Shown in pieces: positions 9,098-30,818 of a DNA stretch of 64,000 bases. The position numbers and the translations under genes were made by a program. The DNA is from Myxococcales bacterium (GTDB lineage: Bacteria; Myxococcota_A; Polyangia; Polyangiales; Polyangiaceae), in the NCBI GenBank assembly GCA_016720545.1, contig JADKKK010000003.1, forward strand, positions 217,516 to 281,515, in the 5' to 3' direction. The notes beneath the pieces are model-generated. The model saw nothing but the letters and a program-made list of their open reading frames with translations. It did no database searches and had not been told where the DNA came from. Every line of letters starts with the position of its first letter. Position 1 is the stretch's first letter.

Positions 9098-10363
9098 TCA
9101 CCACATCGTGAAATCGTCGCTCTTGAAGACGCGACCGAGGGTGTCTTTGAACTTGAAGTTGCCGGCCTTGAAGGCCGCCACCTCGTTCTTGGTGACGACC
9201 GCGGGGACGGTCGCGAGATCGCCAACCACGTCGCCGCGAGAGAAGGCGTAGTTCCACGCGCGGGTCACCGCGCAGGCCGCGACGTCGGGGTCCTTCGCCA
9301 TCTCGGCCGCGAAGCCCGCGATGTCGGTGACGGGCTTGCCGAACCGCCAGCCGAACGTCTGCTGGCCGTCGGGCAGCCAGTCCTTCAGGCGCGCACGTGG
9401 GTTGCCGGCCACCGGGACGGTGACCTGGATGTCGGTCATGTAGGCGCCGTTCCCGTCGAAGTTCCCGAACAGCGGCGCCTGGTGGTTGATGGTGCCGTGG
9501 CAGTTCGCGCAGTTGACCGCCGAGGTGTCCTTGAAGTTCACGCGGATGTCGGGGTCGCCGGTGCCGCCCGTGACGCTGTCGAAGGGCCAGGTGTTCGTGT
9601 ACACGGTGAGCCCCATCGGCACCGGCTTGTCGCTGAACTCGGTGGGGAACTTCGCGCAGACGAAGGTCTCCTGGACGAAGCGCACGCGGCGGAAGGCCAT
9701 CGGCGCGAAGTATTGCGCCATGAGCCCGCGGTCGGTGAGCAGGCCCGCGGTCTGGAGGGTGCCGTTCGCTGCGCAGTCGGCCGCGTTGAGCTTGCTCTGC
9801 GCGGCGTCGAACGTGGGGCAAGTGCCGGTCTTCGCGGTGAAGAGGTCCGTGAAGGGGCGCCCCTCGACCGTCACCAGGGCGGCGAAGTTCGCCGCGAAGT
9901 CCTTGTTGGGCTGGTTCTGGCCAATGTTGCCGACCTGCGCGGTGCGGAGCGTGTCGCGCCAAAAGTCGATCATCTTCAGGGTGAAGCGCGGATCGCCGAG
10001 CAGGCGATCGACGTGCGCCTCGTAGACCTTCTTCTGCTCGGCCTCGCTCGGCGCCGAAGCGATGGAGTTTATCTCCGCGAGGGTCGGCACCTCGCCCACG
10101 AGCTTCAGGCTCGCGGCGCGGAGCGACTCGCCGTAGTCGCGCTTGCGCTGCTCGAGCTGCACGGGCGGCCCCTCCTCCGGGGAGGCCCCGGGGCCCGTGC
10201 CCCCACCCGGCACGCCGCCCGGCCCGGGGGTGAAGGGATCGCCGGGGTCGAGCGTCGTCTCCGAGCCGAGCTGGTTCGGATCGCCTTCGCTCGAGCAGCC
10301 GCCGAGGACGGCCACCATGCCGAACCCTGCGAGCGTCCACGCGGTGAGAGTTCGCCTGCGCAT
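9098..10363 (-). CDS. Putative heme-binding (CxxCH) lipoprotein, DUF1585/1588-like
   Basis: It has a lipoprotein signal ('MRRRTLTAWTLAGFGMVAVLGGC') and a CANCH motif. A GGAGAAAGGGAAG Shine-Dalgarno sequence lies before this ATG. An alternative ATG is at 10393. Confidence 0.6.
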   Translation of the reverse strand: MRRRTLTAWTLAGFGMVAVLGGCSSEGDPNQLGSETTLDPGDPFTPGPGGVPGGGTGPGASPEEGPPVQLEQRKRDYGESLRAASLKLVGEVPTLAEINSIASAPSEAEQKKVYEAHVDRLLGDPRFTLKMIDFWRDTLRTAQVGNIGQNQPNKDFAANFAALVTVEGRPFTDLFTAKTGTCPTFDAAQSKLNAADCAANGTLQTAGLLTDRGLMAQYFAPMAFRRVRFVQETFVCAKFPTEFSDKPVPMGLTVYTNTWPFDSVTGGTGDPDIRVNFKDTSAVNCANCHGTINHQAPLFGNFDGNGAYMTDIQVTVPVAGNPRARLKDWLPDGQQTFGWRFGKPVTDIAGFAAEMAKDPDVAACAVTRAWNYAFSRGDVVGDLATVPAVVTKNEVAAFKAGNFKFKDTLGRVFKSDDFTMW

Positions 10364-10444
10364 GTGCTTCCCTTTCTCCATGATCGAAGTCACTTCTTTG
10401 CAAAGACCGGGCCACGCGGACGCGCGCGACCTAGAGCGGCAGGC

Positions 10445-11665
10445 TCAGAAGAAGATGGCCTTGTTGTTCACGAAGAGGTCGATGAACCCCTGCGTGTTCC
10501 CGACCTTGCCGCCGGTGTGCGCGACGCCCGCGGTCGCGGCCTTCTGCAGCAAGACGCTCGTCGGCAGGTTGCCCTCGTTCAGCTTGCCCAGCACCGAGTC
10601 GCACATCGCCTGGTTGTCGTTGCCGTTGAGCGAGAGCCCAGCCAACCCGGCGCCATGGCAGCTCGCGCAGTTGGAGCCCCCGCCCACCCCCTGCCCTCGC
10701 AACGCCGGGAGGATCGTGTTCCCGAACGCATTGGGATCCTTGCACTTTTTAATCTGCGGGGGCGTCTGGTAGGTGCCCTTCTCGAGCTTCACGGCGTCGA
10801 ACCGGAGCTTGTCGGCCGCGATATCGAAGGGCGCCCATCCCTCTCCGGAGAAGAAAACGGCCCCCGGCCCGAGGAGGGCCTCGGTGCCCTGCTGCACGGT
10901 CTGATCGAGGTTCGAGAAGCTCGCGTCGATGAGCTCGGGAGCCGTCGGATCGGGCTTGGCGAGCACCCGCACGAAGCGCGGGGCGTTCACGTGGACGTCG
11001 GTGCCGGCAGGCGCCACGAGCTTGAGGTTCTTCAGCGAGAGGATGCCGCCGATGAGGCTCGCGTCGAACTTGAGCTTCACGCCGGTGAGCCCGCCCTGCG
11101 CCGCCTTCGTGAGATCGATCTCGTTCGGGCCGGTCTTCACGACGAAAGGGTCGGTCCCGGGGAGCTTCGCCGCGGTGATCGCGACGGCCTCGGACTCGAG
11201 CCACTTGCGGGTCTTTTCTTCGAGCTCCGGGGTCGCCGAGATGGACGGTCCGGCGTGGGCGCCGTGGGTGAGCAGGCTGCTCTGGAAGGCGTCGCGGACG
11301 ACGATGCCTGGAAATTTGCGAATAGAAACGTAGGAGTCGGGCCCCTCGAGGAACTTCGCGGGCTCCGGGTTGAACTGCCCGAGCTCGTGGCATTGCTTGC
11401 CACACGCGTTCTTGAGAGCGGGCTCGATCTCCCGATACAGCTTCTCGGCGTAGGCCTGCTTCGCCTGGATGTCCCCGGGCGAGCCCGGCGGGGCGACCCC
11501 CCCGCCGTCGCCCGCGACGGGCGTCCTGCCGCCGGGCGGAAACACCGGGGTATCGTCCGCGCAGGCGGCGAGCGCGCCGGCGGCGAGCGCGAGCCAAGCG
11601 AGGAGGGCGAGGGGGGCGAGGGGGGCGACGAGGGCGGTCCGAATGGACAACGAGCTGCGGTTCAT
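10445..11665 (-). CDS. Putative heme-binding lipoprotein (CASCH motif), DUF1587/1592/1595-like
   Basis: It has a signal/lipobox ('MNRSSLSIRTALVAPLAPLALLAWLALAAGALAAC'), one canonical CxxCH ('CASCHG') and a CGKQCH motif. An alternative start is at 11695. Confidence 0.6.
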   Translation of the reverse strand: MNRSSLSIRTALVAPLAPLALLAWLALAAGALAACADDTPVFPPGGRTPVAGDGGGVAPPGSPGDIQAKQAYAEKLYREIEPALKNACGKQCHELGQFNPEPAKFLEGPDSYVSIRKFPGIVVRDAFQSSLLTHGAHAGPSISATPELEEKTRKWLESEAVAITAAKLPGTDPFVVKTGPNEIDLTKAAQGGLTGVKLKFDASLIGGILSLKNLKLVAPAGTDVHVNAPRFVRVLAKPDPTAPELIDASFSNLDQTVQQGTEALLGPGAVFFSGEGWAPFDIAADKLRFDAVKLEKGTYQTPPQIKKCKDPNAFGNTILPALRGQGVGGGSNCASCHGAGLAGLSLNGNDNQAMCDSVLGKLNEGNLPTSVLLQKAATAGVAHTGGKVGNTQGFIDLFVNNKAIFF

Positions 11666-11917
11666 TTTCGGCCTCGAGAGCGAGACGTTGCACACGGGGG
11701 GCCAGGAGGTGCAGGAGCGAGGCGCACGAAGCGCCTCAGGAAAGGTGTGGGATCTCGGCAGAATAGCAGGCCGGGCGCGGGGCGCTCGGGATGAGCGCTC
11801 GCGCGGGCGTGGGTCGCGCGCCCACGAGGCCCCCCGTGGATCGTCGGCGAGCCATGGGGGCCAGCCCCAACATGCCGAGCGGGTATGGCCCCCAGGGAGG
11901 CTTCGACCACCCCACCC

Positions 11918-13423
11918 TCATGGGGGCGGTGGGGCGGGAGGCGGCGGCGCGCCAGACGCCGGCGCGCCGGGCGGGGCCGCCCCAGCGGCGAGGCGCTCGC
12001 GGAGGATGCGAGCGGCGTACGCGTACGAGGGGTTCTGCGGCTGCTCGCGCGCGAGCTGCTCGTAGGCCTCCGCCGCCTTGGCCAGATCGCCCTTGTGGAC
12101 CTCGTCGACCGCGGTGCGCTCGAGTGTGGGCCCCTTGCCCGCGTCTTTCCCCGCGGCCGCCGACGGATCGGACGTCCCCGAGGGGGCGGGGCCCGGCGTG
12201 GGGTTGGGCGCGTTGGGCGCAGTGCCCGGGGCGGTCGGAGTGGGCGTCGGCGGCGTGCTCGGCGGCGTGGGCGTGGGGACGAGGCCCATCGCCGAGGGCA
12301 CCGGCGCCGGATCGCCCGCCAGCGCACCGGCCTCGGCGCCCGCGTCGGACCGGGCGGCCTTTTTGGGCGGCGGCGGTGGATCGTCGGTGAAGAGGATGAG
12401 CGCCGCCGCGACGAGCGCCAGCGGCAGGATGATGTAGGTGAGCTTGCGGACGGGCGACGCGGTCTTGAAGTCGGCGATCGCCTTCTTCAGCGGGTCGGTC
12501 TCGGCGGGCGGCGCCGCCTGCGGGAGCTGTCCGACGCCAGAGGCCGAGAATCCTTGAGGGAAAAGTTGCTCCTGCCCGGCCGAGAACGAGCCGCCAGCCT
12601 GCATCGGCTGCATGGGGGGGAAGCCACTGCTTCCCCCGCTCATCGACGCGTTCGGGAAGCCGCCGCTCATGCCGGGCATCCCGCCGGGCATTCCCCCCTG
12701 CCCTTGCATCGGGAAGCCGCCGCTCGCGCCGGGCCCTTGCATCGGGAAGCCGCCGCTCGCGCCGGGCCCTTGCATCGGGAAACCGCCGCTCATGCCTGCG
12801 CTGGGCATCCCGGGCGCCTGCATGGGGAAGCCGCCCCCGGCGGGCGGGAAGGCGCCGGTGGGCGGGCGGGTGCCGCTGCGCGACATGGAGAGATCCAGGG
12901 GCGCGACCCGCGTGGACTCGCCGTCGTCGGCCTGGCTCGAGAACGCCCCGGGCTGGAACGGCCGCGACGGCGCGTCGGTGGGCACCGCCGGAGCGCCCCC
13001 CGAGATTTGCGCGGTGCGGGCAGCGGGTGGCTGGCCAGCCGCAGGAATAGGGGCTGCGGTCGGCGCCTTCGGGGGCGCAGCGGGCGCAGGCGGCGGACCG
13101 GCCGCGGCCCGCTCTTCGGCGCGGTACTCCAAGCGCGCGCCACCGATGTCGATGCTGCAAGGCGGGCGCACCTCGGTCCACTCGGTGCCGATGGGGAAGC
13201 CGTCGACACACGCCGCGTTGTCGGGGTCGGTGGTCTGAAGGAAGAGCGCGTAGCCGTCAAAGTACGCGTACGCGTGCACGTCGAGCATGCGCGCGCCGTC
13301 GATCCGCCACTGGCCGCGGCGGCCGATGCTCAGCGTGGGGGACTCCTTCCCGGAGGTGAGCGGGATGAACCCGGGCTCCCCGATTCCGTTCACGATCTCG
13401 ATGACGTGGGTGGAGGCCGCCAT
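11918..13423 (-). CDS. FHA-like domain protein with Pro/Gly-rich repeats, TM segment and C-terminal TPR-like region
   Basis: The N-terminus is FHA-like ('TLSIGRRGQWRIDGARMLDVHAYAYFDGYALFLQ'). It is followed by three 33-nt in-frame tandem repeats encoding 'GPGASGGFPMQ', then a TM segment ('LTYIILPLALVAAALILF'). The ATG at 13423 is in frame. Confidence 0.55.
   Translation of the reverse strand: MAASTHVIEIVNGIGEPGFIPLTSGKESPTLSIGRRGQWRIDGARMLDVHAYAYFDGYALFLQTTDPDNAACVDGFPIGTEWTEVRPPCSIDIGGARLEYRAEERAAAGPPPAPAAPPKAPTAAPIPAAGQPPAARTAQISGGAPAVPTDAPSRPFQPGAFSSQADDGESTRVAPLDLSMSRSGTRPPTGAFPPAGGGFPMQAPGMPSAGMSGGFPMQGPGASGGFPMQGPGASGGFPMQGQGGMPGGMPGMSGGFPNASMSGGSSGFPPMQPMQAGGSFSAGQEQLFPQGFSASGVGQLPQAAPPAETDPLKKAIADFKTASPVRKLTYIILPLALVAAALILFTDDPPPPPKKAARSDAGAEAGALAGDPAPVPSAMGLVPTPTPPSTPPTPTPTAPGTAPNAPNPTPGPAPSGTSDPSAAAGKDAGKGPTLERTAVDEVHKGDLAKAAEAYEQLAREQPQNPSYAYAARILRERLAAGAAPPGAPASGAPPPPAPPPP
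12700..12798 (-). repeat. 33-bp in-frame tandem repeat x3 (encodes GPGASGGFPMQ)
   Basis: The unit 'ccttgcatcgggaagccgccgctcgcgccgggc' is repeated directly. Confidence 0.7.
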
Positions 13424-13485: not shown

Positions 13486-14601
13486 TCAGCGCCGACGCTG
13501 CGCGGCTTCGTAGACCGAGGCCGGCAGGTCGAGCCCGTGCTCGTGCAGTTGCTCGATGCAACGAGGGATGATCCCGGTCGGGCCGATCGTGCTCTCGATC
13601 TTTCCGGACGGGTCGAACCCTTGGTACTCGCGCACGAAGATGTCCTGCATCTGATACGAGCTCGTGGTCGCATCATACCCCAAGACCTCGGTCACGTGCG
13701 TGATCTTGCGGCTGCCGTCCTGGAGGCGCGACACCTGAACGATGAGGTTCACGGCCGAGGCGATCTGCACGCGGAGCGCGTGGAGCGGCATGTCGACGTC
13801 GCTCATCATGCCCATGGTCTCGAGGCGGGTGATGGTGTCGCGCGGGTACGTGGCGTGGAGCGTGGACATACAGCCGCCGTGGCCCGAGGTCATGGCTTGC
13901 ACGAGGTCGAGCGCCTCGCCGCCGCGGATCTCGCCCACGACGATGCGGTCGGGGCGGAGGCGGAGGGTCGCGCGGAACAGGTCGCGGATCTTCACCTCGC
14001 CCTTGCCCTTTGGATCGGGCGGGCGCGCTTCGAGCTGGCACACGTGCACGCGCTGGAGCTGCAGCTCGCGGGAGTCTTCGATGATGACGACGCGCTCTTC
14101 GTCGGGGATGAAGGACGAGAGCGCGTTCAACATCGAGGTCTTGCCAGACCCCGTGCCGCCGGCGATGAGCACGTTGAGCTTCGACGCGACGAACACCTTC
14201 AGCGCCTCGGCGACCTCGTCGGTCATGGCGCCGAAGTTGATGAGGCGCTGGACGGTGAGGGTCTCCTTGAAGAACCGGCGGATCGACACGCAGGGGCCGT
14301 CGGGGGCCGCCGGCGGAAGCACGGCCTCGATACGCGATCCGTCGGGCAGGCGCCCCTCGAGGATCGGTCGCTCTTCGTCGATGTGCTTGCCGACGTACTG
14401 CGCGGCGTTGCGGAGCGCCGCGGTGAGGTGCTCGACGCTCTCGAACTTCGAGTCGGAGAGGTGGAGCGTCCCCTTCTTCTCGAAGTAGATCTGCCCCGGC
14501 CCGTTGATCATGATGTCGCTGACGCCCGGATCCTCGAGGAGGGGCCGGATGGGGCCGAAGAACTGGAGGAGCGTCTCTTCGAATATTTCCTTCGGAATCA
14601 T
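13486..14601 (-). CDS. CpaF/TadA-family secretion ATPase (short form, no FHA)
   Basis: It has a Walker A ('[10 protein letters not shown]') and the conserved CpaF/VirB11 core ('RIVVGEIRGGEALDLVQAMTSGHGGCMSTLHA'). The ATG at 14601 overlaps the stop of the upstream TPR lipoprotein (ATGA). Confidence 0.8.
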   Translation of the reverse strand: MIPKEIFEETLLQFFGPIRPLLEDPGVSDIMINGPGQIYFEKKGTLHLSDSKFESVEHLTAALRNAAQYVGKHIDEERPILEGRLPDGSRIEAVLPPAAPDGPCVSIRRFFKETLTVQRLINFGAMTDEVAEALKVFVASKLNVLIAGGTGSGKTSMLNALSSFIPDEERVVIIEDSRELQLQRVHVCQLEARPPDPKGKGEVKIRDLFRATLRLRPDRIVVGEIRGGEALDLVQAMTSGHGGCMSTLHATYPRDTITRLETMGMMSDVDMPLHALRVQIASAVNLIVQVSRLQDGSRKITHVTEVLGYDATTSSYQMQDIFVREYQGFDPSGKIESTIGPTGIIPRCIEQLHEHGLDLPASVYEAAQRRR

Positions 14602-15230
14602 GGCGTATCGCCCTCGACGCGGTGAAGGATGGAGGCCCGCGCTTCCTCGACGTGAGAGCCCTTCGGGTCGAGCCGGAGGTACTCGCGAAAATGAGCGTCC
14701 GCGGCCACGAGATCTTGCTCCGCGTCCCGCAGCAGCACGGCGAGCGCGTAGTGCGCTTGGGCGTCGTTGGGGCGCGCCGCGAGCACGCGCTCGAACTCGA
14801 CGCGGGCGAGCTTGGGCTCCTCGGTCGCCGAGTACAGCGACGCGAGCACGAGGCGCACGCGCACGTCGTTCGGGTGTTTCACGAGGTGCTCGCGCGCGTA
14901 CTTCGCCGCGAGCCGAAAGCGCGACTCCTTGATGCACACCTCGAGCAGCAGCGGCATGATCTGCCGAGGGTCGCCGCCTTGGGCGAGCGCGTCGGCCAGG
15001 TACTCCTCCGCGCGCACGTAGTCGCCCACCGCCGCGAAGCCGCGCCCACGCGAGATGAGCTTGTCGACGGTGTGCTCGCGGCTGTACGTGGCCACGTCTG
15101 CCTTGATGGTCTCCGACACGGAGGGCGGCCCGCACGCAGCGGCACCGAGCGCCACGAGCGTCGCCGTCAGCGCGCGCGCGTGTATTATGCACGAGTTTAG
15201 GAGGGCGGCTCCCCGGCGCGCGGCGCTCAC
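14598..15230 (-). CDS. TPR-repeat lipoprotein
   Basis: It has a lipobox ('LVALGAAAC') and TPR repeats. The proposed GTG start at 15230 overlaps the TGA of the upstream FHA gene (GTGA). An alternative ATG at 15290 would overlap that gene by 64 nt. Confidence 0.5.
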   Translation of the reverse strand: MSAARRGAALLNSCIIHARALTATLVALGAAACGPPSVSETIKADVATYSREHTVDKLISRGRGFAAVGDYVRAEEYLADALAQGGDPRQIMPLLLEVCIKESRFRLAAKYAREHLVKHPNDVRVRLVLASLYSATEEPKLARVEFERVLAARPNDAQAHYALAVLLRDAEQDLVAADAHFREYLRLDPKGSHVEEARASILHRVEGDTP

Positions 15231-16102
15231 GTCTTCTTGGCGGCCTCGCCGATTTTCAGCTTCAGCTTTCTGTCGAGGTTCGAGAGCCATGTCACGTACT
15301 CGCCCGTCTTTCCGCTGGTGAACTGCTGAAGAATGCGGACCTGCCGCTGGGCGAGCGCCCAGTCTTCCACGGAGAGCGCGTGGTCGAGCCGCACCTGCTG
15401 TGTGCGGTAGTCGTCGTTGAGCTCGGCGCGCATGGCCCGGGCCGCCTGGTCGGCGATGCCCGCCGAGACAGCGTCGCCACCGACACGGTAGCACGCGGCC
15501 GCTTCCTCGAACAAAGGGACCGCGTGGACGCCATCGGCGACGTGGAAGGGCCGGCGCTCGCGCTTCGCGTCGGCGATGGCCATGCGCTCCTGCGCGCGGG
15601 CGAGGCCCTGCGCGCCGCTCACGGGGCAGGCCGCGATGGGCGGCCCCCAGAGGACGGGCGCCTCCTTCTTGCCGAGCACCGGCCCGGTGGCCTCGTCAGG
15701 GGCGAGGAACAGGTAGCCGGCCGCCGGGAGCATGAGCGCGAGGCCGATGAAGGCCAGCGGGCTCTGCCCTTTCTTCTTCTGCTGGGTCTGGCCACCGAGG
15801 CCAGCCGAGTCCGCGATCGCGACGGCGATCTGGGTCTGGTTGACGCCGAGCACCGCGTCCGGCGGGAGCGGCGACTGCATGAAAGGGACGTTGTTGATCG
15901 TCGGCGAGGGCTGGAAGTTCAGCGCCTTCGCGAAGACGCCCGCCGGGCCGAGCTCGATGAGGAGGTGCTCGACGGCCGCCTGATCGAGCGGCAAGCGGAT
16001 CTCGCAGTGCGCGCCGCTGCCGATGAGCACGCGCTCGGACTCGATGTTGAGCTGCTCGATCTGCCCGGTGGGGAGTCGGATCTGGAAGCGTAGGACGCGC
16101 AC
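15227..16102 (-). CDS. FHA-domain membrane protein
   Basis: The N-terminus is FHA-like ('ERVLIGSGAHCEIRLPLDQAAVEHLLIELGP...PTINNVP') and there is a central TM segment ('LAFIGLALMLPAAGYLFLA'). Confidence 0.6.
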   Translation of the reverse strand: MRVLRFQIRLPTGQIEQLNIESERVLIGSGAHCEIRLPLDQAAVEHLLIELGPAGVFAKALNFQPSPTINNVPFMQSPLPPDAVLGVNQTQIAVAIADSAGLGGQTQQKKKGQSPLAFIGLALMLPAAGYLFLAPDEATGPVLGKKEAPVLWGPPIAACPVSGAQGLARAQERMAIADAKRERRPFHVADGVHAVPLFEEAAACYRVGGDAVSAGIADQAARAMRAELNDDYRTQQVRLDHALSVEDWALAQRQVRILQQFTSGKTGEYVTWLSNLDRKLKLKIGEAAKKT

Positions 16103-16123: not shown

Positions 16124-17035
16124 CTAGAGGCCGCCCGTGATGTTCATCATGGCGGGGCCAAGGATGAGCCCCATGATGGCGAAGAAGACGAGCATCAGCG
16201 GGCCGACCATGGCCACGCCCGCCTTCGCCGCCGACTCCTCCGCGCGAACGGAGCGGCGCTGACGCGACACGCCCGCTTGGATGCTGAGCACCTCCGAGAC
16301 CGGGTTGCCGCGCTCCTCCGCTTGGACAAGCGAGTTGACGAACTCGATCACGGCCTCGCAGGGGCAACGGTTCATGAACTCGATGAGCGCGTCCTTGCGG
16401 GTGCGCCCGAGGTTCATGGTCTGGAGGAGGAGAGTGAACTCCTCGACGATGGGGTCGGCCGGGTTGCTGGACTTCTCGACCACTTGGCGAACGGCCCCGG
16501 GGAAGTCGAGGCCCGCACCCATGGAAAGCGCCATGAGATCGATGACATACGGCAAGCCCCGGCTGACCGACTTGAGTCGCTCTTGGGCCTCGCCGCTGAT
16601 CTGCATGTAGGGCATCGACCCGCCGAGCGCGAGGCCGGCGATGAGCGTGATCTGCCCGAGGTCCATCATCCAGCCGAAGATGCCGCCCACGACGCCGCCA
16701 GCGACCGTCGCGAGGATGGTGAGCGCGATGTACTCGTCGGCGCTGATGCCCATGAAGTCGCCGGCGAGGCCGATCTGCTTGTCGAGGGCCGCGCGCTGCT
16801 CGTCGGTGGGCAGGCCGCTGACCCGGAGGCCGAGCCAGCGCACGATGGGCTCGATGCTGGCCCAGGTCTCGTTGTTCGCCAACGCGCGCTGGCGCTTCAG
16901 GCCGCGGAGGCCGAAGCGGCTCGCCACGCGGCTCGGCGCGCTGCCGATCGTGTAGAGGGCCAGGGCGGCTGCGAAGCTGATGAGGACCGGCACCGAGTAG
17001 CGGAGGGTGAGGAGCTGCCAGGAGTAGGTGGGCAT
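16124..17035 (-). CDS. TadC-like pilus-assembly inner-membrane platform protein (T2SSF family)
   Basis: It is a polytopic membrane protein with GspF/TadC-like sequence ('GLPYVIDLMALSMGAGLDF'), located directly downstream of the TadB-like gene. Confidence 0.7.
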   Translation of the reverse strand: MPTYSWQLLTLRYSVPVLISFAAALALYTIGSAPSRVASRFGLRGLKRQRALANNETWASIEPIVRWLGLRVSGLPTDEQRAALDKQIGLAGDFMGISADEYIALTILATVAGGVVGGIFGWMMDLGQITLIAGLALGGSMPYMQISGEAQERLKSVSRGLPYVIDLMALSMGAGLDFPGAVRQVVEKSSNPADPIVEEFTLLLQTMNLGRTRKDALIEFMNRCPCEAVIEFVNSLVQAEERGNPVSEVLSIQAGVSRQRRSVRAEESAAKAGVAMVGPLMLVFFAIMGLILGPAMMNITGGL

Positions 17036-17036
17036 G

Positions 17037-17921
17037 TCAGAGGTCCACCGCGAGCACCTTGCGGGCGATGATGATGGAGCTGGCCCAACACGCGACGCAG
17101 CCCGTGCTGATGAGGTACCCGGTGACGCTCTTGGTGAGCGGGTCGAAGTAGCCGGGCCAGAGCGAGTTCAGGCCGACGAGCAAGCCGAACGGCATGACCG
17201 CGATGACCCAGAGCTGCATCTTGCCCTCGGCGGTCTTGGTGCGGACGACGCCCTCGAGGCGGCGCATCTCGCGGAGCGTGTTGGCCGTCGCCTCGAGCAC
17301 CTTCGGGAGATTGCCGCCGACCTGCCGACCGATGAGCACGGACGAGAGCGCCGAGTCGAGCTGGCGGCTGCCGACCCGCGCAGCCATGTGGAGCAGCGCC
17401 TGATCGAGCGTGCTGCCGACCTTCATCTCCTTCAGCGCGAGGTCGACCTCCTGACGCATCGGATCGGTGATGACCGACGCGACCGAGTTGAGCGCGCCGC
17501 CGATGCTCGGCGTGGTCTTCAGGGCGTTCGCGAGCGCGAGCATGAAGTTGTCGAGCTGCTCTTCGATGAGCTCGACCCGCTTGCGGCGCATGGCCTCGAT
17601 GTAGACGAGCGGCACCACCGCGATGAGGAGCAGGCCCGCCCACCACATGGGGATGGAGAACAGCACGTTCGCCGTGATGAGGAAGAACGCCACGCCGAGC
17701 TGCCCGAGCGTGATGTTCTGCCCCGGGATGAAGATGAACATCGGCCGCAGGCGCTGCTCGAGCAGCGAGTTGTAGCGGGCCCAGTAGCGGTACACGGGAC
17801 CCGACTGATCGGCCGCGGCGGCCCACGTGCCAGCGAAGAGCGCGAGCCCGGTGACCCCGGCGCTCGCCCACTTCAGCACCTCCGTCACGGGGGACACGTC
17901 CCCCATTCTGCCGCTCATCAT
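17037..17921 (-). CDS. TadB-like pilus-assembly inner-membrane platform protein (T2SSF family)
   Basis: It is a polytopic T2SSF-family protein. Its ATG overlaps the stop of the upstream ATPase (ATGA at 17918-17921). Confidence 0.7.
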   Translation of the reverse strand: MMSGRMGDVSPVTEVLKWASAGVTGLALFAGTWAAAADQSGPVYRYWARYNSLLEQRLRPMFIFIPGQNITLGQLGVAFFLITANVLFSIPMWWAGLLLIAVVPLVYIEAMRRKRVELIEEQLDNFMLALANALKTTPSIGGALNSVASVITDPMRQEVDLALKEMKVGSTLDQALLHMAARVGSRQLDSALSSVLIGRQVGGNLPKVLEATANTLREMRRLEGVVRTKTAEGKMQLWVIAVMPFGLLVGLNSLWPGYFDPLTKSVTGYLISTGCVACWASSIIIARKVLAVDL

Positions 17922-19789: not shown

Positions 19790-19828
19790 GCCCTGCTCCT
19801 CGCAGTTTCGGCGGCGGCGGCCATGGCC

Positions 19829-19888
19829 GCTACTTGGCCGCTTACTTGGCCGCTTACTTGGCCGCTTACTTGGCCGCTTACTTGGCCG
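19829..19888. repeat. 12-bp tandem direct repeat (cttacttggccg) x~5
   Basis: Four perfect units plus one degenerate unit lie immediately 3' of the secretin gene. The rightmost unit supplies the secretin stop codon (TAA), and each further unit carries TAA in the same frame. The repeats are in the intergenic space before the FHA-CpaF gene. Confidence 0.75.
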
Positions 19889-21206
19889 ATGGGGGAGCCT
19901 TCGGGAAGGCCTCCACGTTGTCGATGTCCCCCGAGTAGTCCTTGAAGCTGTTCAAGGCGTTGTTGATGATCTCGAGCGAGCTCTTCGGCACCGAGTCCAC
20001 GACGCTGGGGATGATGAACACAGCGCCTTCGGTCTCGGCGTTGTCCCAGCGCTGGCTCCCGAAGAGCGCCCCGACGACGGGCAGCTGCGCGAGGCCCGGC
20101 AGGCCCGCGCTGTCGCGGCGACGGGTCTGGGTCTTGATTCCCGAGAGGACGAGCGCTTGGCCAAGCTTCAGCGTGACGAGGGTCTCGAGCTTGGTGGTCG
20201 AGCGCCCCGGCACCGTGCCCGAGGCCGCCGGCGTGAGGTCGGCCACATCGGCCGCGAGCTTGATCTCGACGTCCTTCGAGTTGACGTCGTACCGCGGCAG
20301 CACGGTCACGTTCGTGCCGAACTGCACCTTGACGAGGCCTACCGAGTTCGCGGTGACCTGCTGGAAGTTCTGCTCGCCGCCGCTCTGGAAGGTGGCCTCG
20401 GAGCCGTTCGACGTGATGACCGTCGACTGCTTCATGATGCGCACCCAGCCGTAGCGCGACCCGATGTCGAGGCGCGGCATGGGCTGGTTCACGATGTTCG
20501 CCTCGGCGCGCGTGGCGGTCTTGGCGATGAAGTCGAAGTCGATGCGCGTGGCGACGATCTGCTGGCCTTGGCCGGAGACGCCGCCGATGGCGTCGGGCCA
20601 CCCGATGCCCACCGTGTAGTTCCAGCTCTTCTCGTACTGGACGAAGTAAAAGTCGAGTCGCATCAACAGCTTACGGTCGGCGGCGCCCTGCCCCACCGTG
20701 ACCACCGACTCGACCTGCCCTTGATACAGCGAGGCGATCTGCTGGATGCGCTTGGAGTCGGATTCGCTCGAGACGCCGCCCTCGATGAACACGCGGCCGC
20801 CCACTCGACGCACCCGAATGCCCGGGATGCCCTCGAGGAGCTGCACGAGCTCCTTCTCGACCACCTGCGGCGGGCGCTGAGCCACCGAGATGTCGTACGT
20901 CACCTGCGACTTGTCCTTGCGGATGAGGAGCAGCGTGGTGGAGCCGGGCTTCACGGCGCGGAGCACGAACTGCGACTTGTCGTCGGTGAGCTGCACGCTC
21001 ACGATGCCGGCCTGACCCTCGGTGTACTGGTCGATGCCGGACGCGGGGATGGTCTTGGTCTCGCCGATGGCGAGCGCGATGTCCTCGCGCTTCTGCGAGC
21101 CCTGCGCCGCGGCGGCGCGAGGCACGATGGAGAGCGAGATCGCCGAGGCGACCCCCATCGCCCCCGCGAGCCAGAAGATACGTGTGGAGCGCTTCAAGCT
21201 AAGCAT
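19878..21206 (-). CDS. Secretin, CpaC/RcpA-like outer-membrane channel
   Basis: The internal ATG gives a signal peptide ('MLSLKRSTRIFWLAGAMGVASA'). The C-terminal secretin domain reads '...LVLSGIKTQTRRRDSAGLPGLAQLPVVGALFGS...AVFIIPSVV'. Its start overlaps the CpaB stop (TGATG). The upstream 170 aa of the track ORF are rejected. Confidence 0.75.
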   Translation of the reverse strand: MLSLKRSTRIFWLAGAMGVASAISLSIVPRAAAAQGSQKREDIALAIGETKTIPASGIDQYTEGQAGIVSVQLTDDKSQFVLRAVKPGSTTLLLIRKDKSQVTYDISVAQRPPQVVEKELVQLLEGIPGIRVRRVGGRVFIEGGVSSESDSKRIQQIASLYQGQVESVVTVGQGAADRKLLMRLDFYFVQYEKSWNYTVGIGWPDAIGGVSGQGQQIVATRIDFDFIAKTATRAEANIVNQPMPRLDIGSRYGWVRIMKQSTVITSNGSEATFQSGGEQNFQQVTANSVGLVKVQFGTNVTVLPRYDVNSKDVEIKLAADVADLTPAASGTVPGRSTTKLETLVTLKLGQALVLSGIKTQTRRRDSAGLPGLAQLPVVGALFGSQRWDNAETEGAVFIIPSVVDSVPKSSLEIINNALNSFKDYSGDIDNVEAFPKAPPSAK

Positions 21207-22033
21207 CACGGGTTCTGTCCTCCGCCACCGATCACGGTGGGCCCCCTGGGTGTACGCACGCCAGGGATGGTGGCCCGCTGCTCGGGCTTCAAGATTGCGT
21301 CCATGTTGATGTCGACCAGACCGACCGTGGTCTTGTTGTCCTCGGGGTTGCGGACCGCGACCGCGAGGCGGCCACGCTCGGCGGCGAGGGCGAGGATCTG
21401 GGCCTCCGGGAGCGTGAGGCTCAGCGTGAGGAGGTTCTCGCGATCGGCCGACTTGTCGCGGCTCTCGCTCGCCTCGACCGACGTGTCGACGCCCGTCGCG
21501 AGCACGAGGACGCGCTGGAGGAGCACCACCGCGTTCTTCGCCTCGCTGATGCCGCCGGCGCCGAGGACGCCGATGACGTCGACGTAGTCGCCCGGGCGGA
21601 TGAGCGCGATGCTCGAGTCGTCGCGGGCGGTGCGGATCGACACCGCGCGGTAGCCCGGCTGCACGAGCACGCTGAGCTCCTTGCGGTCCTCGTTCGCCGT
21701 GGCGAGGTCGGTCCACATGAGGGTCTGACCGGCCTTCACGGTGGTGCCCACGCGGAGGTTCAAGATCTTCGACTTCTCGGCCTCCTTCACGGAGCGCTCT
21801 TCGACGTAAGCGATCGGGATCTCGCGCGTCGCGATGTTGTCTTCGCTCAGCGCCTTGCCGCGATCGACCTGCTTGACGACGGTGAGCACGCGCACGCGCT
21901 CACCGCCGGAGGCCTCGACCTCGAAGCGGCGCTGGTACAGAAAGAGCAGGAAGATCCCGAGGATGCCGACCACGACGGCGATGGCGAGGGCGCGACGATT
22001 CACGAAGTGGCCTCCGCGTGGGCGTCCGAGCAC
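21206..22033 (-). CDS. CpaB-like Flp pilus assembly protein (SAF domain)
   Basis: It has an N-terminal TM ('ALAIAVVVGILGIFLLFLY') and CpaB/RcpC-like sequence, and lies immediately upstream of the secretin. Confidence 0.65.
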   Translation of the reverse strand: MLGRPRGGHFVNRRALAIAVVVGILGIFLLFLYQRRFEVEASGGERVRVLTVVKQVDRGKALSEDNIATREIPIAYVEERSVKEAEKSKILNLRVGTTVKAGQTLMWTDLATANEDRKELSVLVQPGYRAVSIRTARDDSSIALIRPGDYVDVIGVLGAGGISEAKNAVVLLQRVLVLATGVDTSVEASESRDKSADRENLLTLSLTLPEAQILALAAERGRLAVAVRNPEDNKTTVGLVDINMDAILKPEQRATIPGVRTPRGPTVIGGGGQNP

Positions 22034-22249: not shown

Positions 22250-25177
22250 TCAGAAGCTCACGCTCACGTTCGCGAGGAAGCTGCGCCCGTTCTGCAGGAT
22301 CGTGCGCTGGCGGAACTCGCGGCTCGGAATCGATTCGTAGCGGGAATCCGCGAGGTTGTACGCGCCCACGGCGTACCGAGCGTTCAGGCGCTCGATCTCG
22401 CCGGAGAACACGAGGTCGCCGACGATGCCCGCGCGCGACGAGCCCTGGGGCGGGTCGGTCACTTCGTTGTCCGAGTCGAAGCGCGGCCCCTCGACCGAGA
22501 CGCGCATCATGGCCATCAGCGATCTCCCCACGATCGGCGCCGCGCCCTTCACCGAGCCGAGCACCACCGGCGAGTTGGGGACCTGGCGGAGCGTTGGAGC
22601 GTCGAGGTACCGCGCCTTCTGCACCGAGACGGTGGCGCTGGCCATGAAGCCCTGACGCCACTCGCGTCGCAGCTCCGCCTCGCCACCCGCGACGAGGACG
22701 GGCGAGTCGCTGTTCTCGTAGCGGAGCTTGCCCGCCGAGATCTCCTTCAGCTCGATCAGGCCGCTGACGTAGTTCGTGTATCCTGCAAGGAGCGCGACGA
22801 GCGTCGGCGAAATTCGCTGCGACACCTCGACCTCGCCCGAGGTGACCTGCTCGGGCTTCAGGTCCGCGGCGGCGGCCCGATCGGAGCCGTTCGAGAAGAG
22901 CTCGTAGACGCTCGGCGAGCGGAACGCCTTGCCGCCGAGCAGCTTGATCTTTCCGCCCTTCCACGTGTCGAAGATCAGCGCGAGGCGCGGGTTCGTCGCG
23001 CCGAGCGGATCGAAGGCGACGTTCGAGTAGTAGTCGACGCGGGCGCCCGCGGAAATCTTCACGGCCTTCACGGGCGTGATGTCGCCGACCAGGTAGCCGG
23101 CGGCGTTCATGTAGGGGTCGTTGCGGTTCGTGTAGACCTGCGACGCGTCGGCCGCGAACTGCCTCGCCTGGAGGTGCCCGATGAGCTCGGCGCCGACGGT
23201 GATGCGCAGGGAGTCGGCGGGCTTCAGGACGAGGCGCTGCTCGCCGCCGATCCACTTCCCGTAGAACACCTCGGTCTCGAGGCTCGGGCGCGGATCAGAC
23301 CCGTAGGTGCCGTAGTAGTTGTAGAGGTTCAGGTGCACGCGCGAGAGGCTCTCCACGCGCTTGCCGAGGTTGGGCTCGACGCGCAGCTCGACGAGCCCGC
23401 GTGTGTCGCGGACCTTGCTGCGCGGGTCGCCGAGGACCGACTCGTACGCGCCGGTGGGGATGCTCTTGGTCCGATGCGACAGCATCCACTGCACCGTGAT
23501 GAAGCGCCACCAGGCACGCCCCCCGATCGAGCCGGCGCTGAAGCCATCCGCGTTGCGGACGTTGCCGTCGGACGGGAGGCCGTCGGCCCCGAGCTCGGGG
23601 TCCGTCGCGCGGGGGTCGTTCCGGTACTCGGGGAAGTAGAAGTCCCGGCCGCCGCTCCGGGCGATCGCGAGGGAGGTCCACACGCCCCCGTCTTCGCCTA
23701 GCCGCAGAACCCCGGTCGCGCGCGCACGACCGACGCCGTCGAGCGCGGTGCCTCCGGCGACCTCTCCGTGCGTGCGCACCTGACGGCTGCGAGTGACGAG
23801 GTTGATGACACCGAAGAACGCACCGGTACCGTAGAGGACGGACCCCGGGCCTCGGACCACCTCGATGCGGTCGATGTCGTCGAGGTCCACACGGGCGTGG
23901 AACCCCACCAGGGACGAGCCGGCGTAGTTGTCGTTCGTGGACTGCCCGTCGATCGTCACCAGGATGCGATTGCCATAGTCGCCGGGCCTCGAGAAGCCAC
24001 GCACGCCGACCGCTTCGTAGTTTCGATCGTCGCTCAGGTACATGCCGCGCACACCACGCACGGCCTCCGAGATGGTGGGGTAGCCCATCGCGCGGAGCTC
24101 GGCGCCGGTGATGATGGTGACCGACGCGGGCGCGTCCTCCACCGACTCGAGCGAGCGCGAAGCCGCGGCGACCTCGTCGAGCTCGAGCAGCTCGGCCTCC
24201 ACCTTGGCCTGAGTCTGCTTCCGCACCCTGACCTTGCGGACCACGGCGCGGTAGCCGCCCTTCTCGACGCGCACCTCATGTTCACCTTCGGTGATCGACA
24301 GCACGGCGGGGGTGAATCCGCTCGCGTTGCCGTCGACCGTCACCAGCGCTTCGCGGACGTCAGCGGACACGAGGAGCGTGCCGAACACGGCGGCGAGGCG
24401 CGGACGCACGACGGTGGTCGCGTTCGCGGCGATCTCGGCCGCCACCTCGACTCCCTGAAATCCGTTCTTCGTGACGTACAGCGTCCGGCGGCCCATCGGC
24501 AGGCGCTCCGTGCACGGGATCACGCAGAGCGGCTTCGCGTCCTCCGGAGCGAGCCGAACTTCCGCGCCGGTCGGGTCGCCCTCGACCCGAAGAGTCCCGA
24601 AGATTGGCGCGAGCGGGATTCGAACGGTCGTGTCGGTGCCGAGCTTCAGCTCGACCCCCTCGACCTTGCCGGGCTCGTGGGCCGCTCGCTCGCCGAGGAA
24701 GGTGTAGCGGCCGGCAGGCAGCGCGAGGACCATGGGCGTCTGCCCGCGCGCTCCGAGGTCCTTGCGGTCGATGAAGAGCGTCGCGCCTGGCGGGGTCGAC
24801 TCCACGCGGACGACCGCGACGAGCGGCCTGATGCGCGCGATGGCGTCGCCGATGCGAGTCCGGATCGCGGGGTCGGGCTCTCCGTCCAGCGCGCGCTGGT
24901 AGTAGCGGTACGCGTCCGCCGGCTGCTTCAGCTGCTCGTAGGTCCGCGCGATGTTGAAGAGCACGTTCTTGTTGGGAACGAGCCTGTTGGAGGCCAGAAA
25001 ATGCTCGAGCGCGCCGTTGAAGTCGCCGACCTCGTAGCGCTTCGCTGCGAGCCGAAACTGGAAGTCCGCCTCGTCGGCGACGTCGTCGGCGTAGGCCACG
25101 GCGGACACGCCGAAGAGGCCCACCAGTGAGAGGGCTGTCAGTCCGAGGCGGAGAACGCGCGGAGCCTTGCGGAACAT
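22250..25177 (-). CDS. TonB-dependent-receptor-like outer-membrane barrel with N-terminal TPR and three PEGA-like domains
   Basis: It has a signal peptide, then TPR ('YEVGDFNGALEHFLASN...YEQLKQPADAYRYYQRAL') and three PEGA/carboxypeptidase-regulatory-like repeats. A TonB-dependent-receptor plug follows ('DAPASVTIITGAELRAMGYPTISEAVRGVRGMY...RGFS') and then a long beta-barrel ending in Phe. Confidence 0.75.
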   Translation of the reverse strand: MFRKAPRVLRLGLTALSLVGLFGVSAVAYADDVADEADFQFRLAAKRYEVGDFNGALEHFLASNRLVPNKNVLFNIARTYEQLKQPADAYRYYQRALDGEPDPAIRTRIGDAIARIRPLVAVVRVESTPPGATLFIDRKDLGARGQTPMVLALPAGRYTFLGERAAHEPGKVEGVELKLGTDTTVRIPLAPIFGTLRVEGDPTGAEVRLAPEDAKPLCVIPCTERLPMGRRTLYVTKNGFQGVEVAAEIAANATTVVRPRLAAVFGTLLVSADVREALVTVDGNASGFTPAVLSITEGEHEVRVEKGGYRAVVRKVRVRKQTQAKVEAELLELDEVAAASRSLESVEDAPASVTIITGAELRAMGYPTISEAVRGVRGMYLSDDRNYEAVGVRGFSRPGDYGNRILVTIDGQSTNDNYAGSSLVGFHARVDLDDIDRIEVVRGPGSVLYGTGAFFGVINLVTRSRQVRTHGEVAGGTALDGVGRARATGVLRLGEDGGVWTSLAIARSGGRDFYFPEYRNDPRATDPELGADGLPSDGNVRNADGFSAGSIGGRAWWRFITVQWMLSHRTKSIPTGAYESVLGDPRSKVRDTRGLVELRVEPNLGKRVESLSRVHLNLYNYYGTYGSDPRPSLETEVFYGKWIGGEQRLVLKPADSLRITVGAELIGHLQARQFAADASQVYTNRNDPYMNAAGYLVGDITPVKAVKISAGARVDYYSNVAFDPLGATNPRLALIFDTWKGGKIKLLGGKAFRSPSVYELFSNGSDRAAAADLKPEQVTSGEVEVSQRISPTLVALLAGYTNYVSGLIELKEISAGKLRYENSDSPVLVAGGEAELRREWRQGFMASATVSVQKARYLDAPTLRQVPNSPVVLGSVKGAAPIVGRSLMAMMRVSVEGPRFDSDNEVTDPPQGSSRAGIVGDLVFSGEIERLNARYAVGAYNLADSRYESIPSREFRQRTILQNGRSFLANVSVSF

Positions 25178-26867: not shown

Positions 26868-27260
26868 TCAGGGAGACGGGCACTTCCCGCGGCAGGCGGC
26901 CCGAACCGCGTGGCACTTGTCGATGCAGGGCTTCAGCTTGTCGGCGCACTTGCTGAGGCACTTGTTGTCGTTCAGCGTCTTCTGCTTCTTCGCCTCTTCC
27001 TCGGTCGTCTTGCAGGCCTTGAAGCAGGGCTCTTCCTTCTTCAGACAGAGCGACGAACAGTAGGTGCTGCCCTGGTCGCAGCGCTGCCCGCACGCCGTGG
27101 CCTGCTCGGCGTCGGCGCAGGCCTGCTCGACCAGCTCCACGCCCTCGGACGACAAGTCAGCCGACCCCGCACAGCGCACCGAGCTCGAGGGGGAGAAGGC
27201 GAGCAGCCAGGCGCCGAAGAAGGTCGCGACCGAGCCGCTGATCCGCGCGAGGGAGCTCAT
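26868..27260 (-). CDS. Small secreted Cys-rich protein (about 14 Cys, repeated CX3C pairs)
   Basis: The internal ATG gives a signal peptide ('MSSLARISGSVATFFGAWLLAFS'). The mature ~105 aa contain paired CX3C motifs ('PCFKAC', 'KCLSKC', 'PCIDKC', 'ACRGKC'). The ATG overlaps the upstream gene's stop (ATGA). Confidence 0.5.
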   Translation of the reverse strand: MSSLARISGSVATFFGAWLLAFSPSSSVRCAGSADLSSEGVELVEQACADAEQATACGQRCDQGSTYCSSLCLKKEEPCFKACKTTEEEAKKQKTLNDNKCLSKCADKLKPCIDKCHAVRAACRGKCPSP

Positions 27261-28237: not shown

Positions 28238-28280
28238 GGCGACCGCCCCTGGCCTCACTTCGGTTCATGGGACCAAACTC

Positions 28281-30273: not shown

Positions 30274-30818
30274 CAGTCCACCTTGTACCTTGCGCCTTGA
30301 TTGGGCATCGTCGCTTCGGCCGTGAGGATCTTGCGAGAGCCGGGACAGATGAGTCGACCCATGGGGACCGTGCAGCTGTAGGTCGCCTGCACGCGCACCC
30401 GAACGGGTCCGTAGACGTCGGACATGCTCGAACCGTCTTGGACCGAGACGCTGACGTTCGAGACGGAGCCGCTCGTGATCCAGGGGCTCAGCGCGAGGCC
30501 GGCGGCCTGCTTGACGTCGGTGTTGCTGCCCTTTTCGCCGGGGTTGGTGGGCTTCTTCACCATCACGATGGCCGCGCGCGCCGCGGTGATCGCCGCGTGC
30601 TGAACGCCGAGGTTGACGGTGTAGATCTTCGCCACCTGTACGAAGGAGAAGAACGTGGTGAGCAAAGGCACGACGGCGATGACGAACTCGACCAGGGCCG
30701 CTCCGCGACGATCGTGGAGGAGCGACGCGGGCGCAGAAGCCGAGTCGGAGCTGCCGGAGTCGGCGGAGCCTGACTCATGCGGCGCAGGATTAAAAAATAC
30801 CGACCTGAGCGACTTCAT
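30273..30818 (-). CDS. TadE-like pseudopilin
   Basis: It carries the TadE signature 'RRGAALVEFVIAVVPLLTTFFSFVQV'. The ATG at 30818 was checked. Confidence 0.65.
   Translation of the reverse strand: MKSLRSVFFNPAPHESGSADSGSSDSASAPASLLHDRRGAALVEFVIAVVPLLTTFFSFVQVAKIYTVNLGVQHAAITAARAAIVMVKKPTNPGEKGSNTDVKQAAGLALSPWITSGSVSNVSVSVQDGSSMSDVYGPVRVRVQATYSCTVPMGRLICPGSRKILTAEATMPNQGARYKVD

Follow-up and report, generated by a model that had tools for sequence, protein, structure and literature searches.

Organization of the Tad-like operon

The DNA analyzed here is a stretch of 64,000 nucleotides (nt) from a Polyangiaceae bacterium (contig JADKKK010000003.1, positions 217,516 to 281,515), which we refer to as the window, and our subject is a Tad-like pilus operon that encodes two CpaF-type ATPases, one fused to an FHA domain (ATPase1) and one short (ATPase2). 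The window consists of ~70% guanine-plus-cytosine (GC) DNA that is 99% identical to contigs of Polyangiaceae metagenome-assembled genomes, and all of the relevant genes lie on its minus strand. Domains of the cluster proteins were assigned with Pfam and NCBIfam profiles, and the genes were lettered in operon order as follows: CpaB (B), the secretin (C), FHA-CpaF (D), TadB (E), TadC (F), a membrane protein with an FHA fold (G), a TPR lipoprotein (H), ATPase2 (I) and a further membrane protein (J). These genes encode a Kil-like Tad (type IVc) pilus machine that is contained in a single cluster (Table 1). ATPase2, which is labeled just "CpaF family protein" in the databases, is very probably a genuine, functional and divergent component of this machine.

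An earlier note on this DNA had placed three genes, for a short CpaF, a TPR lipoprotein and an FHA membrane protein, on the minus strand at 13486-16102 and had described two secretion ATPases in one Tad-like operon. We found both statements to be correct, as the Pfam profiles assigned FHA plus T2SSE to one ATPase and T2SSE to the other. From cpaB to gene J, the coding strand carried no terminator-like site other than a single one located inside cpaB itself.

Table 1. Genes of the pilus cluster in the window, listed from the upstream end
Feature	Coordinates	Strand	Evidence
TadE-like pseudopilin, upstream end of cluster	30273-30887	minus	Pfam TadE 3.4e-5
Two unknown proteins	28813-30273 and 27257-28258	minus	
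Ser/Thr protein kinase	25252-26775	minus	Pfam Pkinase 4.6e-41
TPR-PEGA-Plug/TonB-dependent-receptor-like outer-membrane protein, directly upstream of cpaB	22250-25177	minus	Pfam
CpaB/RcpC (B)	21206-22033	minus	Pfam RcpC 3e-19, SAF
CpaC/RcpA-type secretin (C)	19878-21209	minus	Pfam Secretin 4.5e-25, T2SS-T3SS_pil_N
ATPase1 (D), FHA-fused CpaF, KilF-like, 623 amino acids	17918-19789	minus	Pfam FHA + T2SSE
TadB/CpaG-like platform protein (E)	17037-17921	minus	Pfam T2SSF 1.2e-14
TadC/CpaH-like platform protein (F)	16124-17035	minus	Pfam T2SSF 5e-14
G, bitopic membrane protein with FHA fold, 291 amino acids	15227-16102	minus	AlphaFold + Foldseek
H, TPR lipoprotein, 210 amino acids, GTG start	14598-15230	minus	Pfam TPR_14/16/19
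I, ATPase2, 371 amino acids, NTD and CAD only	13486-14601	minus	Pfam T2SSE 1.7e-57
J, FHA-like/Pro-rich/transmembrane/TPR-like membrane protein	11918-13423	minus	Sequence reading

Gene junctions and reading frames

Reading of the sequence revealed that the TGA stop codon of G overlaps the in-frame GTG start codon of H (GTGA, 15230-15227) and that the TGA stop codon of H overlaps the ATG start codon of ATPase2 (ATGA, 14601-14598), exactly as the earlier note had stated. From these starts, H reads MSAARRGAALLNSCIIHARALTATLVALGAAAC-GPP and ATPase2 reads MIPKEIFEETLLQ..., with the N-terminus MIPKEIFE. The further claim that overlapping codons chain the three genes to the platform genes was correct for the G/H and H/I junctions but not for the link to TadC, where the stop codon at 16124 and the GTG start of G at 16102 are separated by a 21-nt spacer that carries a GAAAGG ribosome-binding site. 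Similarly, the suggestion that the overlaps imply co-translation can be kept in the sense of translational coupling and co-expression, but they do not imply a physical co-translation or interaction of a periplasmic lipoprotein with a cytoplasmic ATPase.

Overlaps of 4 nt were also present at the CpaB/secretin and FHA-CpaF/TadB junctions. Since four-base overlaps are ordinary in this operon, it is their conservation across loci that counts. When 36 orthologous loci were compared, genes H and I overlapped by 4 nt in 21 of them; nearly all of the remaining junctions measured about 20 nt or less, with one 68-nt spacer and one locus that gave no valid estimate. Loci that were retrieved via protein G, and thus independently of the ATPase, also contained a TPR gene followed by a T2SSE gene of 379-385 codons, and independent gene callers placed the 4-nt overlap between them. 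The G-H-I tail belongs to the operon, in which it is conserved and translationally coupled.

A longer open reading frame (ORF) in the ATPase2 frame (13486-15192) was rejected as an artefact, as its extra 197 residues are Arg-rich nonsense read over the TPR frame, and the MIPKEIFE start is kept as far as the Bradymonadales. The GC content at third codon positions (GC3) was 0.92 for the ATPase2 gene and 0.89 for that of the TPR protein, values that match the rest of the operon. Opposite these two genes, antisense ORFs with a GC3 of 0.95 are present on the plus strand (13742-14488 and 14767-15021), and a simple GC3-based caller favored them as the real genes; homology and the GC3 of 0.89-0.92 in the true frames overruled this choice. 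The preference of such callers for antisense ORFs is a known artefact of 70% GC DNA and calls for caution in the automatic annotation of the ATPase2/TPR region.

ATPase2 lacks the three-helix bundle of CpaF

The best NCBIfam match of ATPase2 was the TadA-family model with 288 bits, while GspE, PilB and PilT reached 55, 53 and 47 bits; for the PilT-family model TIGR01420, the score was 46.8 bits against a cut-off of 319. Among PDB sequences, Caulobacter CpaF scored 317 bits with an identity of 44%, covering CpaF residues 147-491, and the next matches were archaeal GspE (150 bits), FlaI (130 bits) and VirB11 (127 bits). The AlphaFold2 model of ATPase2 had a predicted local distance difference test (pLDDT) score of 82.8 and a predicted template modeling (pTM) score of 0.74. 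When this model was compared with the PDB using Foldseek, the CpaF structure 9e24 was the first match (E 2e-43), followed by archaeal GspE/FlaI and then VirB11, with PilB, PilU and PilT far behind. Additionally, the AIRNLIRE motif was absent from the ATPase2 alignment, in which the equivalent region reads GYDATTSSY. Judged by profile, PDB and modeled-fold scores, ATPase2 is a member of the CpaF/TadA family and not a PilT, PilB or VirB11 protein.

The alignment of ATPase2 with CpaF begins at CpaF residue 147 with about 13 residues ahead of it, so that the start of ATPase2 corresponds roughly to CpaF residue 134, and the model contains a single short helix before the NTD strands. ATPase2 is therefore without the disordered region and without the three-helix bundle of CpaF. 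Yen et al. found that the three-helix bundle, NTD and CAD form the minimum CpaF architecture across 292 orthologues and that deletion of the bundle abolished expression of CpaF (Yen et al. 2025, PMC12019362). ATPase2 falls short of this minimum. Its layout is PilT-like, with N2D and CTD but no N1 domain, and it is encoded beside a larger paralogue. In the alignment, the Walker A motif, the Walker B motif with its catalytic Glu, the His box and the arginine fingers of ATPase2 were all intact.

ATPase1 is different in these respects. It aligned to CpaF residues 44-489 with 397 bits, including the three-helix bundle, and its layout consists of an FHA domain, a disordered linker, the three-helix bundle, the NTD and the CAD. 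The FHA domain is canonical (GR...SRQH...NG). This FHA-fused, bundle-bearing layout places ATPase1 in class III of the CpaF scheme of Yen et al. 2025. The two window ATPases share an identity of 47-48% over the whole of ATPase2, which aligns to ATPase1 residues 253-622.

Type IVa pili have accessory PilT-like ATPases, PilU among them, and ATPase2 might likewise be a regulatory or accessory subunit, which would form mixed or stacked rings with FHA-CpaF in a PilU-like dependence on the main motor or compete with it for the platform, and would tune activity without moving pilins on its own. Mixed assemblies are conceivable because the two ATPases are 47% identical over the NTD and CAD and because the inter-subunit arginine fingers are conserved; moreover, ATPase2 carries several substitutions around the nucleotide pocket (S280A, T289S, A311R, N371T, T372S, S377C and N384T). 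This explanation is improbable in our view, as ATPase2 has retained the Walker A/B and His box residues for hydrolysis and as the Bradymonadales gene for it stands at a separate locus.

ATPase2 represents a divergent CpaF subfamily

A core alignment was built from the ATPase1 and ATPase2 orthologues, Caulobacter CpaF and 137 CpaF representatives drawn from a library of 1.8 billion proteins, with two archaeal proteins as outgroups. In the 139 columns that were at least 75% conserved among the 137 representatives, ATPase1 deviated at 2 positions and ATPase2 at 21, and the 21 deviations of ATPase2 were fixed within its clade. ATPase1 was 55% identical to Caulobacter CpaF, with a mean identity of 0.56 to the representatives, and the corresponding values for ATPase2 were 44% and 0.46. 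On these sequence measures, the co-resident ATPase1 is a mainstream CpaF.

Thirteen of these derived states form a signature of ATPase2: I165, K205, L228, R242, A280, S289, A/S344, L366, T371, S372, T384, D/E401 and M404. The Bradymonadales proteins carried 9-13 of the 13 states (mostly 11-13). In a second metagenome group, 24 of 33 proteins scored 10-12 and the rest 5-8. ATPase1 scored 0-1. The phylogeny was inferred by neighbor joining. A first tree with 150 representatives was star-like and placed the Bradymonadales proteins apart from the Polyangia clade; a more densely sampled tree gave moderate support (see below), so that the subfamily rests mainly on its shared derived residues.

A recent duplication of ATPase1 was considered as the origin of ATPase2 and rejected, because the two proteins are no closer to each other (47-48% identity) than ATPase2 is to unrelated CpaFs and because they were sisters in 0 of 60 bootstraps. 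The sequence comparisons indicate that the lineage of ATPase2 diverged long ago and has stayed frozen since then. At first, ATPase2 seemed to be the better conserved of the two ATPases, but this proved to be an artefact. Over the common core, the identity was 0.82 for ATPase1 and 0.76 for ATPase2, and the apparently lower conservation of ATPase1 arises because its linker is variable.

These data also bear on the reading that ATPase2 is a decaying, functionless duplicate of the main motor. The loss of the N-terminal domains and the changes at many conserved positions might suggest decay, but ATPase2 is 66-99% identical across the Polyangia families, its derived residues are fixed, its catalytic motifs are intact, and its start and the overlap with H are conserved. 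Together with the absence of a sister relationship to ATPase1, this conservation effectively refutes decay.

The search for representatives returned, among its top-scoring hits, six library proteins (P0121-P0126, 831-1605 amino acids) with 2-4 CpaF-like ATPase modules per polypeptide. They represent true tandem-motor proteins or else neighboring genes that were merged, and in both cases they hint at adjacent CpaF paralogues in other lineages.

Conservation of the locus across genomes

A scan of one genome per species identified 43 loci. Wherever the flanking sequence was sufficient, the loci of Polyangiaceae, Labilithrix and Sandaracinaceae all had the order CpaB-secretin-FHA-CpaF-TadB-TadC-G-H-I(-J). 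They amounted to more than 30 loci and included the Labilithrix luteola DSM 27648 cluster (L014), which is located at about 1.12-1.14 Mb of NZ_CP012333.1. According to the literature, Sandaracinus and Chondromyces have Kil-like genes. In two divergent metagenome lineages (L044 and L045), in which ATPase2 was 51-57% identical, the order was FHA-CpaF-TadB-TadC-FHA protein-(TPR)-short ATPase-FHA protein, and one of these loci goes on with a prepilin peptidase and a TadE-like gene. ATPase2 is supported by these observations as a conserved component of the operon and not a stray neighbor. The earlier note had stated that the second ATPase would be an unrelated neighbor if it clustered with a different secretion system family and its orthologues were encoded elsewhere in related genomes; orthologues away from tad genes were found in the Bradymonadales only, while the linkage to tad genes held in the Polyangia loci and in the two further lineages.

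In the Bradymonadales, a short ATPase that is 51-54% identical and has the same MIPKEIFE start is encoded near obg, which lies upstream. The downstream genes encode a single-pass membrane protein of 670-750 amino acids with a partial protein-kinase domain and then a lipoprotein. The membrane protein reads MSDDRFKQARRSL..., and the three genes form a conserved module (L038 10001-14068; L039 10001-14264; L041 6425-10634; L042 3700-7774).

Such loci raise the alternative that ATPase2 serves a process other than pilus function, as a signaling-linked or export ATPase that works with adjacent FHA- or kinase-type membrane proteins and is merely a frequent neighbor of tad genes. No tad gene was found within 10 kb of the ATPase2 orthologue in the four Bradymonadales loci, and in the Polyangia, too, the gene after ATPase2 encodes a single-pass membrane protein, the FHA-type J. 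We nevertheless regard this alternative as quite unlikely. The position in the operon and the 4-nt overlap are fixed in the Polyangiaceae, Labilithrix, Sandaracinaceae and the two distant lineages, every characterized close relative (CpaF/TadA, FlaI and archaeal GspE) acts on a T2SSF platform, and the Bradymonadales downstream genes had no detectable homology to J or K.

The platform-contact face and position 387

In the extension orientation, CpaF contacts CpaG and CpaH through helix 5, loop 8 (G204, R205, R206 and D208) and the central pore loop (E331 and G334) (Yen et al.; Hohl et al.). To compare this face, residue states were counted for ATPase1 and ATPase2 in 31 matched genomes. ATPase1 kept G204, R205, R206, D208, E331 and G334 in 31 of 31 orthologues. 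In ATPase2, G204 and G334 were invariant and D208 was present in 27 of 31, but the other positions were altered: position 205 was K in all 31 orthologues, where ATPase1 has R; position 206 was variable (H, T, M or F, with H in the window protein), where ATPase1 has R; position 329 was D in all 31, where ATPase1 has N; and position 331 was K or R in all 31, where ATPase1 has E. The identities of ATPase1 orthologues were 0.95 in helix 5, 0.97 in loop 8 and 0.90 in the pore loop, compared with 0.73-0.79 for ATPase2. Similar states were observed outside this clade, as D329 was invariant and position 331 was never Glu in the Bradymonadales group and the second metagenome group, with K205 in 85 of 87 and 22 of 33 proteins, respectively. 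ATPase2 has P386 in common with CpaF.

In Caulobacter CpaF, pilus extension is abolished by deletion of residues 1-146, by a quadruple central-loop mutation that includes E331K and by D208K, with expression caveats (PMC11300603). ATPase2 would be unable to perform canonical extension because it has no three-helix bundle, carries K/R331 and combines K205 with a residue other than Arg at position 206.

The same face could also be read as a sign that ATPase2 is a second assembly motor, which would power another polymerization step on the same platform, such as priming the pilus with minor pilins or a tip complex or assembling a second pilin type, with FHA-CpaF carrying out the bulk, signal-gated extension. 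The presence of K205, D329 and K/R331 in 31 of 31 orthologues suggests an interface that is in use, the catalytic motifs are intact, and archaeal GspE2 likewise has G-K-H in loop 8. The TadE-like pseudopilin and the unknown proteins of the cluster could form tip complexes, and Myxococcus Kil pili have adaptable tips (PMC12075869). Against this stand the Caulobacter results, in which loss of the bundle and the loop mutant including E331K each abolished extension (PMC11300603), and the composition of the cluster, in which neither Pfam searches nor locus comparison revealed a second platform pair. A second assembly motor is thus a rather unlikely explanation.

[quoted passage not shown] We found R387 in 13 of 31 ATPase1 orthologues and in 95 of 137 general CpaFs, while position 387 was R or K in 25 of 31 ATPase2 orthologues. 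Within the clade of the window, this residue pattern fits a split of functions between the two ATPases.

Companion proteins and neighboring genes

Protein H has a signal peptide that ends in ...LGAAAC, and a Cys after the hydrophobic stretch was present in essentially all orthologues. It thus combines a lipoprotein signal and conserved Cys with TPR repeats. Its matches to pilotin models were weak (PilW, 37.4 bits against a cut-off of 154; Tgl, 16.4 against 225), and a PDB sequence search with H returned generic TPR proteins only. By analogy with the TadD/PilF(PilW)/Tgl pilotins, which are also small TPR lipoproteins in type IV filament clusters with a secretin, H is a candidate TadD/PilF/Tgl-like pilotin.

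Protein G gave only a sub-threshold match to Yop-YscD_cpl in Pfam and did not reach the Pfam FHA threshold. Its AlphaFold model (pLDDT 81) consists of a cytoplasmic N-terminal β-sandwich (residues 1-98), a transmembrane helix (about 116-133) and a helical periplasmic domain (164-290). The β-sandwich was similar to the FHA structures 3poa and 2lc1 in Foldseek, with a template modeling score of 0.81 and an E value of 1e-7. In residues 23-50, G reads IGS...AVEH where ATPase1 has IGR...SRQH, so that the Arg that contacts phospho-threonine is replaced by Ser and the Ser of SxxH by Ala. From these substitutions, G probably binds no phospho-threonine. An FHA fold without these Arg and Ser residues is a feature in which G resembles the cytoplasmic domains of PrgH and YscD.

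Protein J has an FHA-like N-terminus, Gly/Pro/Met-rich repeats, a transmembrane helix and a short TPR-like C-terminus. Neither Pfam nor a PDB sequence search gave a match for J. It is syntenic in most loci, and the gene at its position in L044 carries FHA/Yop-YscD_cpl. The cytoplasmic linker of J contains GGFPMQGPGAS repeats, which are encoded by a tandem repeat of 33 nt at 12700-12791 (2.8 copies, 98% matches).

Another tandem repeat, with a unit of 12 nt, was observed at the secretin/FHA-CpaF junction (19824-19888; 5.5 copies, 98% matches). Its unit on the coding strand is AGTAAGCGGCCA, with a TAA in each unit, and it runs from the very end of the secretin gene through the spacer that precedes the start of FHA-CpaF. 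A role in phase variation or regulation between the secretin and motor genes is conceivable for it.

Upstream of cpaB, the Ser/Thr kinase is the likely source of phospho-threonine ligands for the FHA domains. Just after the kinase gene follows the gene for an unusual 975-residue fusion of TPR, two PEGA, Plug and TonB-dependent-receptor barrel domains, part of which is also present at the edge of two related loci (L001 and L005). Downstream of the cluster, the window encodes a lipoprotein with two CxxCH heme-binding motifs (10445-11695) and a PSCyt2/PSD2 (DUF1549/DUF1585) protein (9098-10393), and this pair occurs again near the cluster in several related loci (e.g. L047 and L048).

Comparison with known Tad, Kil and type IVa systems

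We compared ATPase2 and its operon with the known systems. With CpaF/TadA (PDB 9e24 and 8rjf), ATPase2 has in common the NTD and CAD core, the catalytic motifs and the neighboring tadB/tadC, cpaB and secretin genes; this neighborhood was found in the Polyangia but not in the Bradymonadales. Unlike CpaF, ATPase2 has no disordered region or bundle, carries the changes R205K, R206H, N329D and E331K/R and does not stand alone but accompanies a canonical CpaF.

The Kil system of Myxococcus xanthus comprises FHA-fused KilF, KilB, KilC and KilG/H, and the genes for MXAN_4649 (FHA, PrgH-like) and MXAN_4648 (FHA plus TPR) adjoin the platform genes (Seef et al. 2021, PMC8460266). That paper explicitly names the lack of TadD and the possession of one ATPase as features of Kil (PMC8460266). 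Kil and the window system have in common FHA-CpaF, CpaB, the secretin, TadB/TadC, several FHA proteins and a Myxococcota host, and J occupies the position of MXAN_4648. In contrast to Kil, which is split into two clusters, the window system is encoded in one. Moreover, its two FHA proteins are separated by a TPR lipoprotein and a second ATPase, which is not so in Kil as published. One paper lists MXAN_1327 among the Tad-like genes of M. xanthus; a literature search for this gene found that paper and a 2011 paper on the gliding machinery only.

Similar to PilB/PilT of type IVa pili, the window encodes two paralogous ATPases with one platform, the larger having N-terminal domains and the smaller consisting of NTD and CAD. 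The earlier note had likened the pair to the extension and retraction motors of type IVa pili. This analogy is permitted by the N1-less layout of ATPase2 and its altered extension face, but it is not borne out by the PilT-family and AIRNLIRE comparisons, by R387, which is not subfamily-wide, or by Kil, in which KilF alone retracts. Unlike PilB and PilT, both window ATPases are CpaF-type, with ATPase2 outside the PilT family, so any division of labor would have arisen independently of PilB/PilT.

Bdellovibrio bacteriovorus has several TadA paralogues: TadZA, tadA2 with rcpA2 and a lone tadA3. The rcpA2-tadA2 module, the sole paralogue pair deleted, was dispensable (bioRxiv 10.64898/2026.07.08.737194). 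Like the window, this predatory bacterium with a Kil-related Tad system has more than one TadA-type ATPase. The Bdellovibrio paralogues are at separate loci, whereas ATPase2 belongs to the core operon and keeps its synteny throughout a class. In a literature search for a second CpaF/TadA inside a Tad operon, the Bdellovibrio paralogues were the only ones found, and the searchable literature treats Tad and Kil machines as single-motor systems. What is new here is a Kil-like Tad machine that has a second, bundle-less CpaF subfamily member built into its operon.

Proposed role of ATPase2

As a whole, the observations may best be explained by ATPase2 being a second motor that is integral to the machine, is not suited to canonical extension and has a retraction-like or auxiliary function; we put this forward tentatively, at somewhat less than even confidence. 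ATPase2 would be an active hexameric motor acting on the same TadB/TadC platform as ATPase1. FHA-CpaF would drive pilus extension, gated by Ser/Thr-kinase signaling through its canonical FHA domain, and ATPase2 would drive or assist the opposite or a subsequent step, i.e., retraction, disassembly or resetting. In this arrangement, ATPase2 would make a different kind of contact with the platform, in the manner of PilT, whose architecture has no N1 either. H might act as a TadD/PilF/Tgl-type pilotin or outer-membrane accessory that is made in a fixed ratio with the motor, and G as a PrgH/YscD-like scaffold that docks the cytoplasmic parts. That the role of ATPase2 is specifically retraction-like is possible but somewhat less likely than not.

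Several points weigh against this proposal. In the published kilG-kilH-MXAN_4649-MXAN_4648 cluster, there is no ATPase or TPR gene in between (PMC8460266), and KilF is the only motor predicted for the Myxococcus Kil pilus, which is capable of both extension and retraction (PMC12075869). The Bradymonadales loci described above lack tad genes nearby. In the densely sampled tree, the subfamily was strictly monophyletic in only 23 of 60 bootstraps, although it contained three intruders or fewer in 55 of 60. R387 failed as a retraction marker of the subfamily, as it holds for the Polyangiaceae/Labilithrix/Sandaracinaceae clade only; at position 387, the second metagenome group has His and the Bradymonadales have Asp, so the subfamily is not defined by the known retraction residue. 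Conservation of the C-terminal motif is also lower in ATPase2, with an identity of 0.57 compared with 0.73 in ATPase1. Finally, the altered residues of the ATPase2 N-face are conserved within the family, which argues that this face is still used for something.

At its widest, the proposal would be that the Kil-like branch (Polyangia and relatives) independently re-invented the type IVa two-motor arrangement, with a signal-gated, extension-only FHA-CpaF and a dedicated N1-less retraction or reset motor that meets TadB/TadC in the inverted orientation. We consider this unlikely, if conceivable. If it is true, there would be a natural split-function derivative of the type IV filament motors in the "single inverting ATPase" class. 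Work on Tad pili from 2019 to 2026 rests on one bifunctional CpaF, to which the ATPase2 operon is a natural exception, and its two separated CpaF paralogues provide a ready-made genetic test of the inversion model and of the indispensability of the bundle. For Kil-type predatory pili outside Myxococcus, the picture changes as well, and cultivable carriers of the cluster exist.

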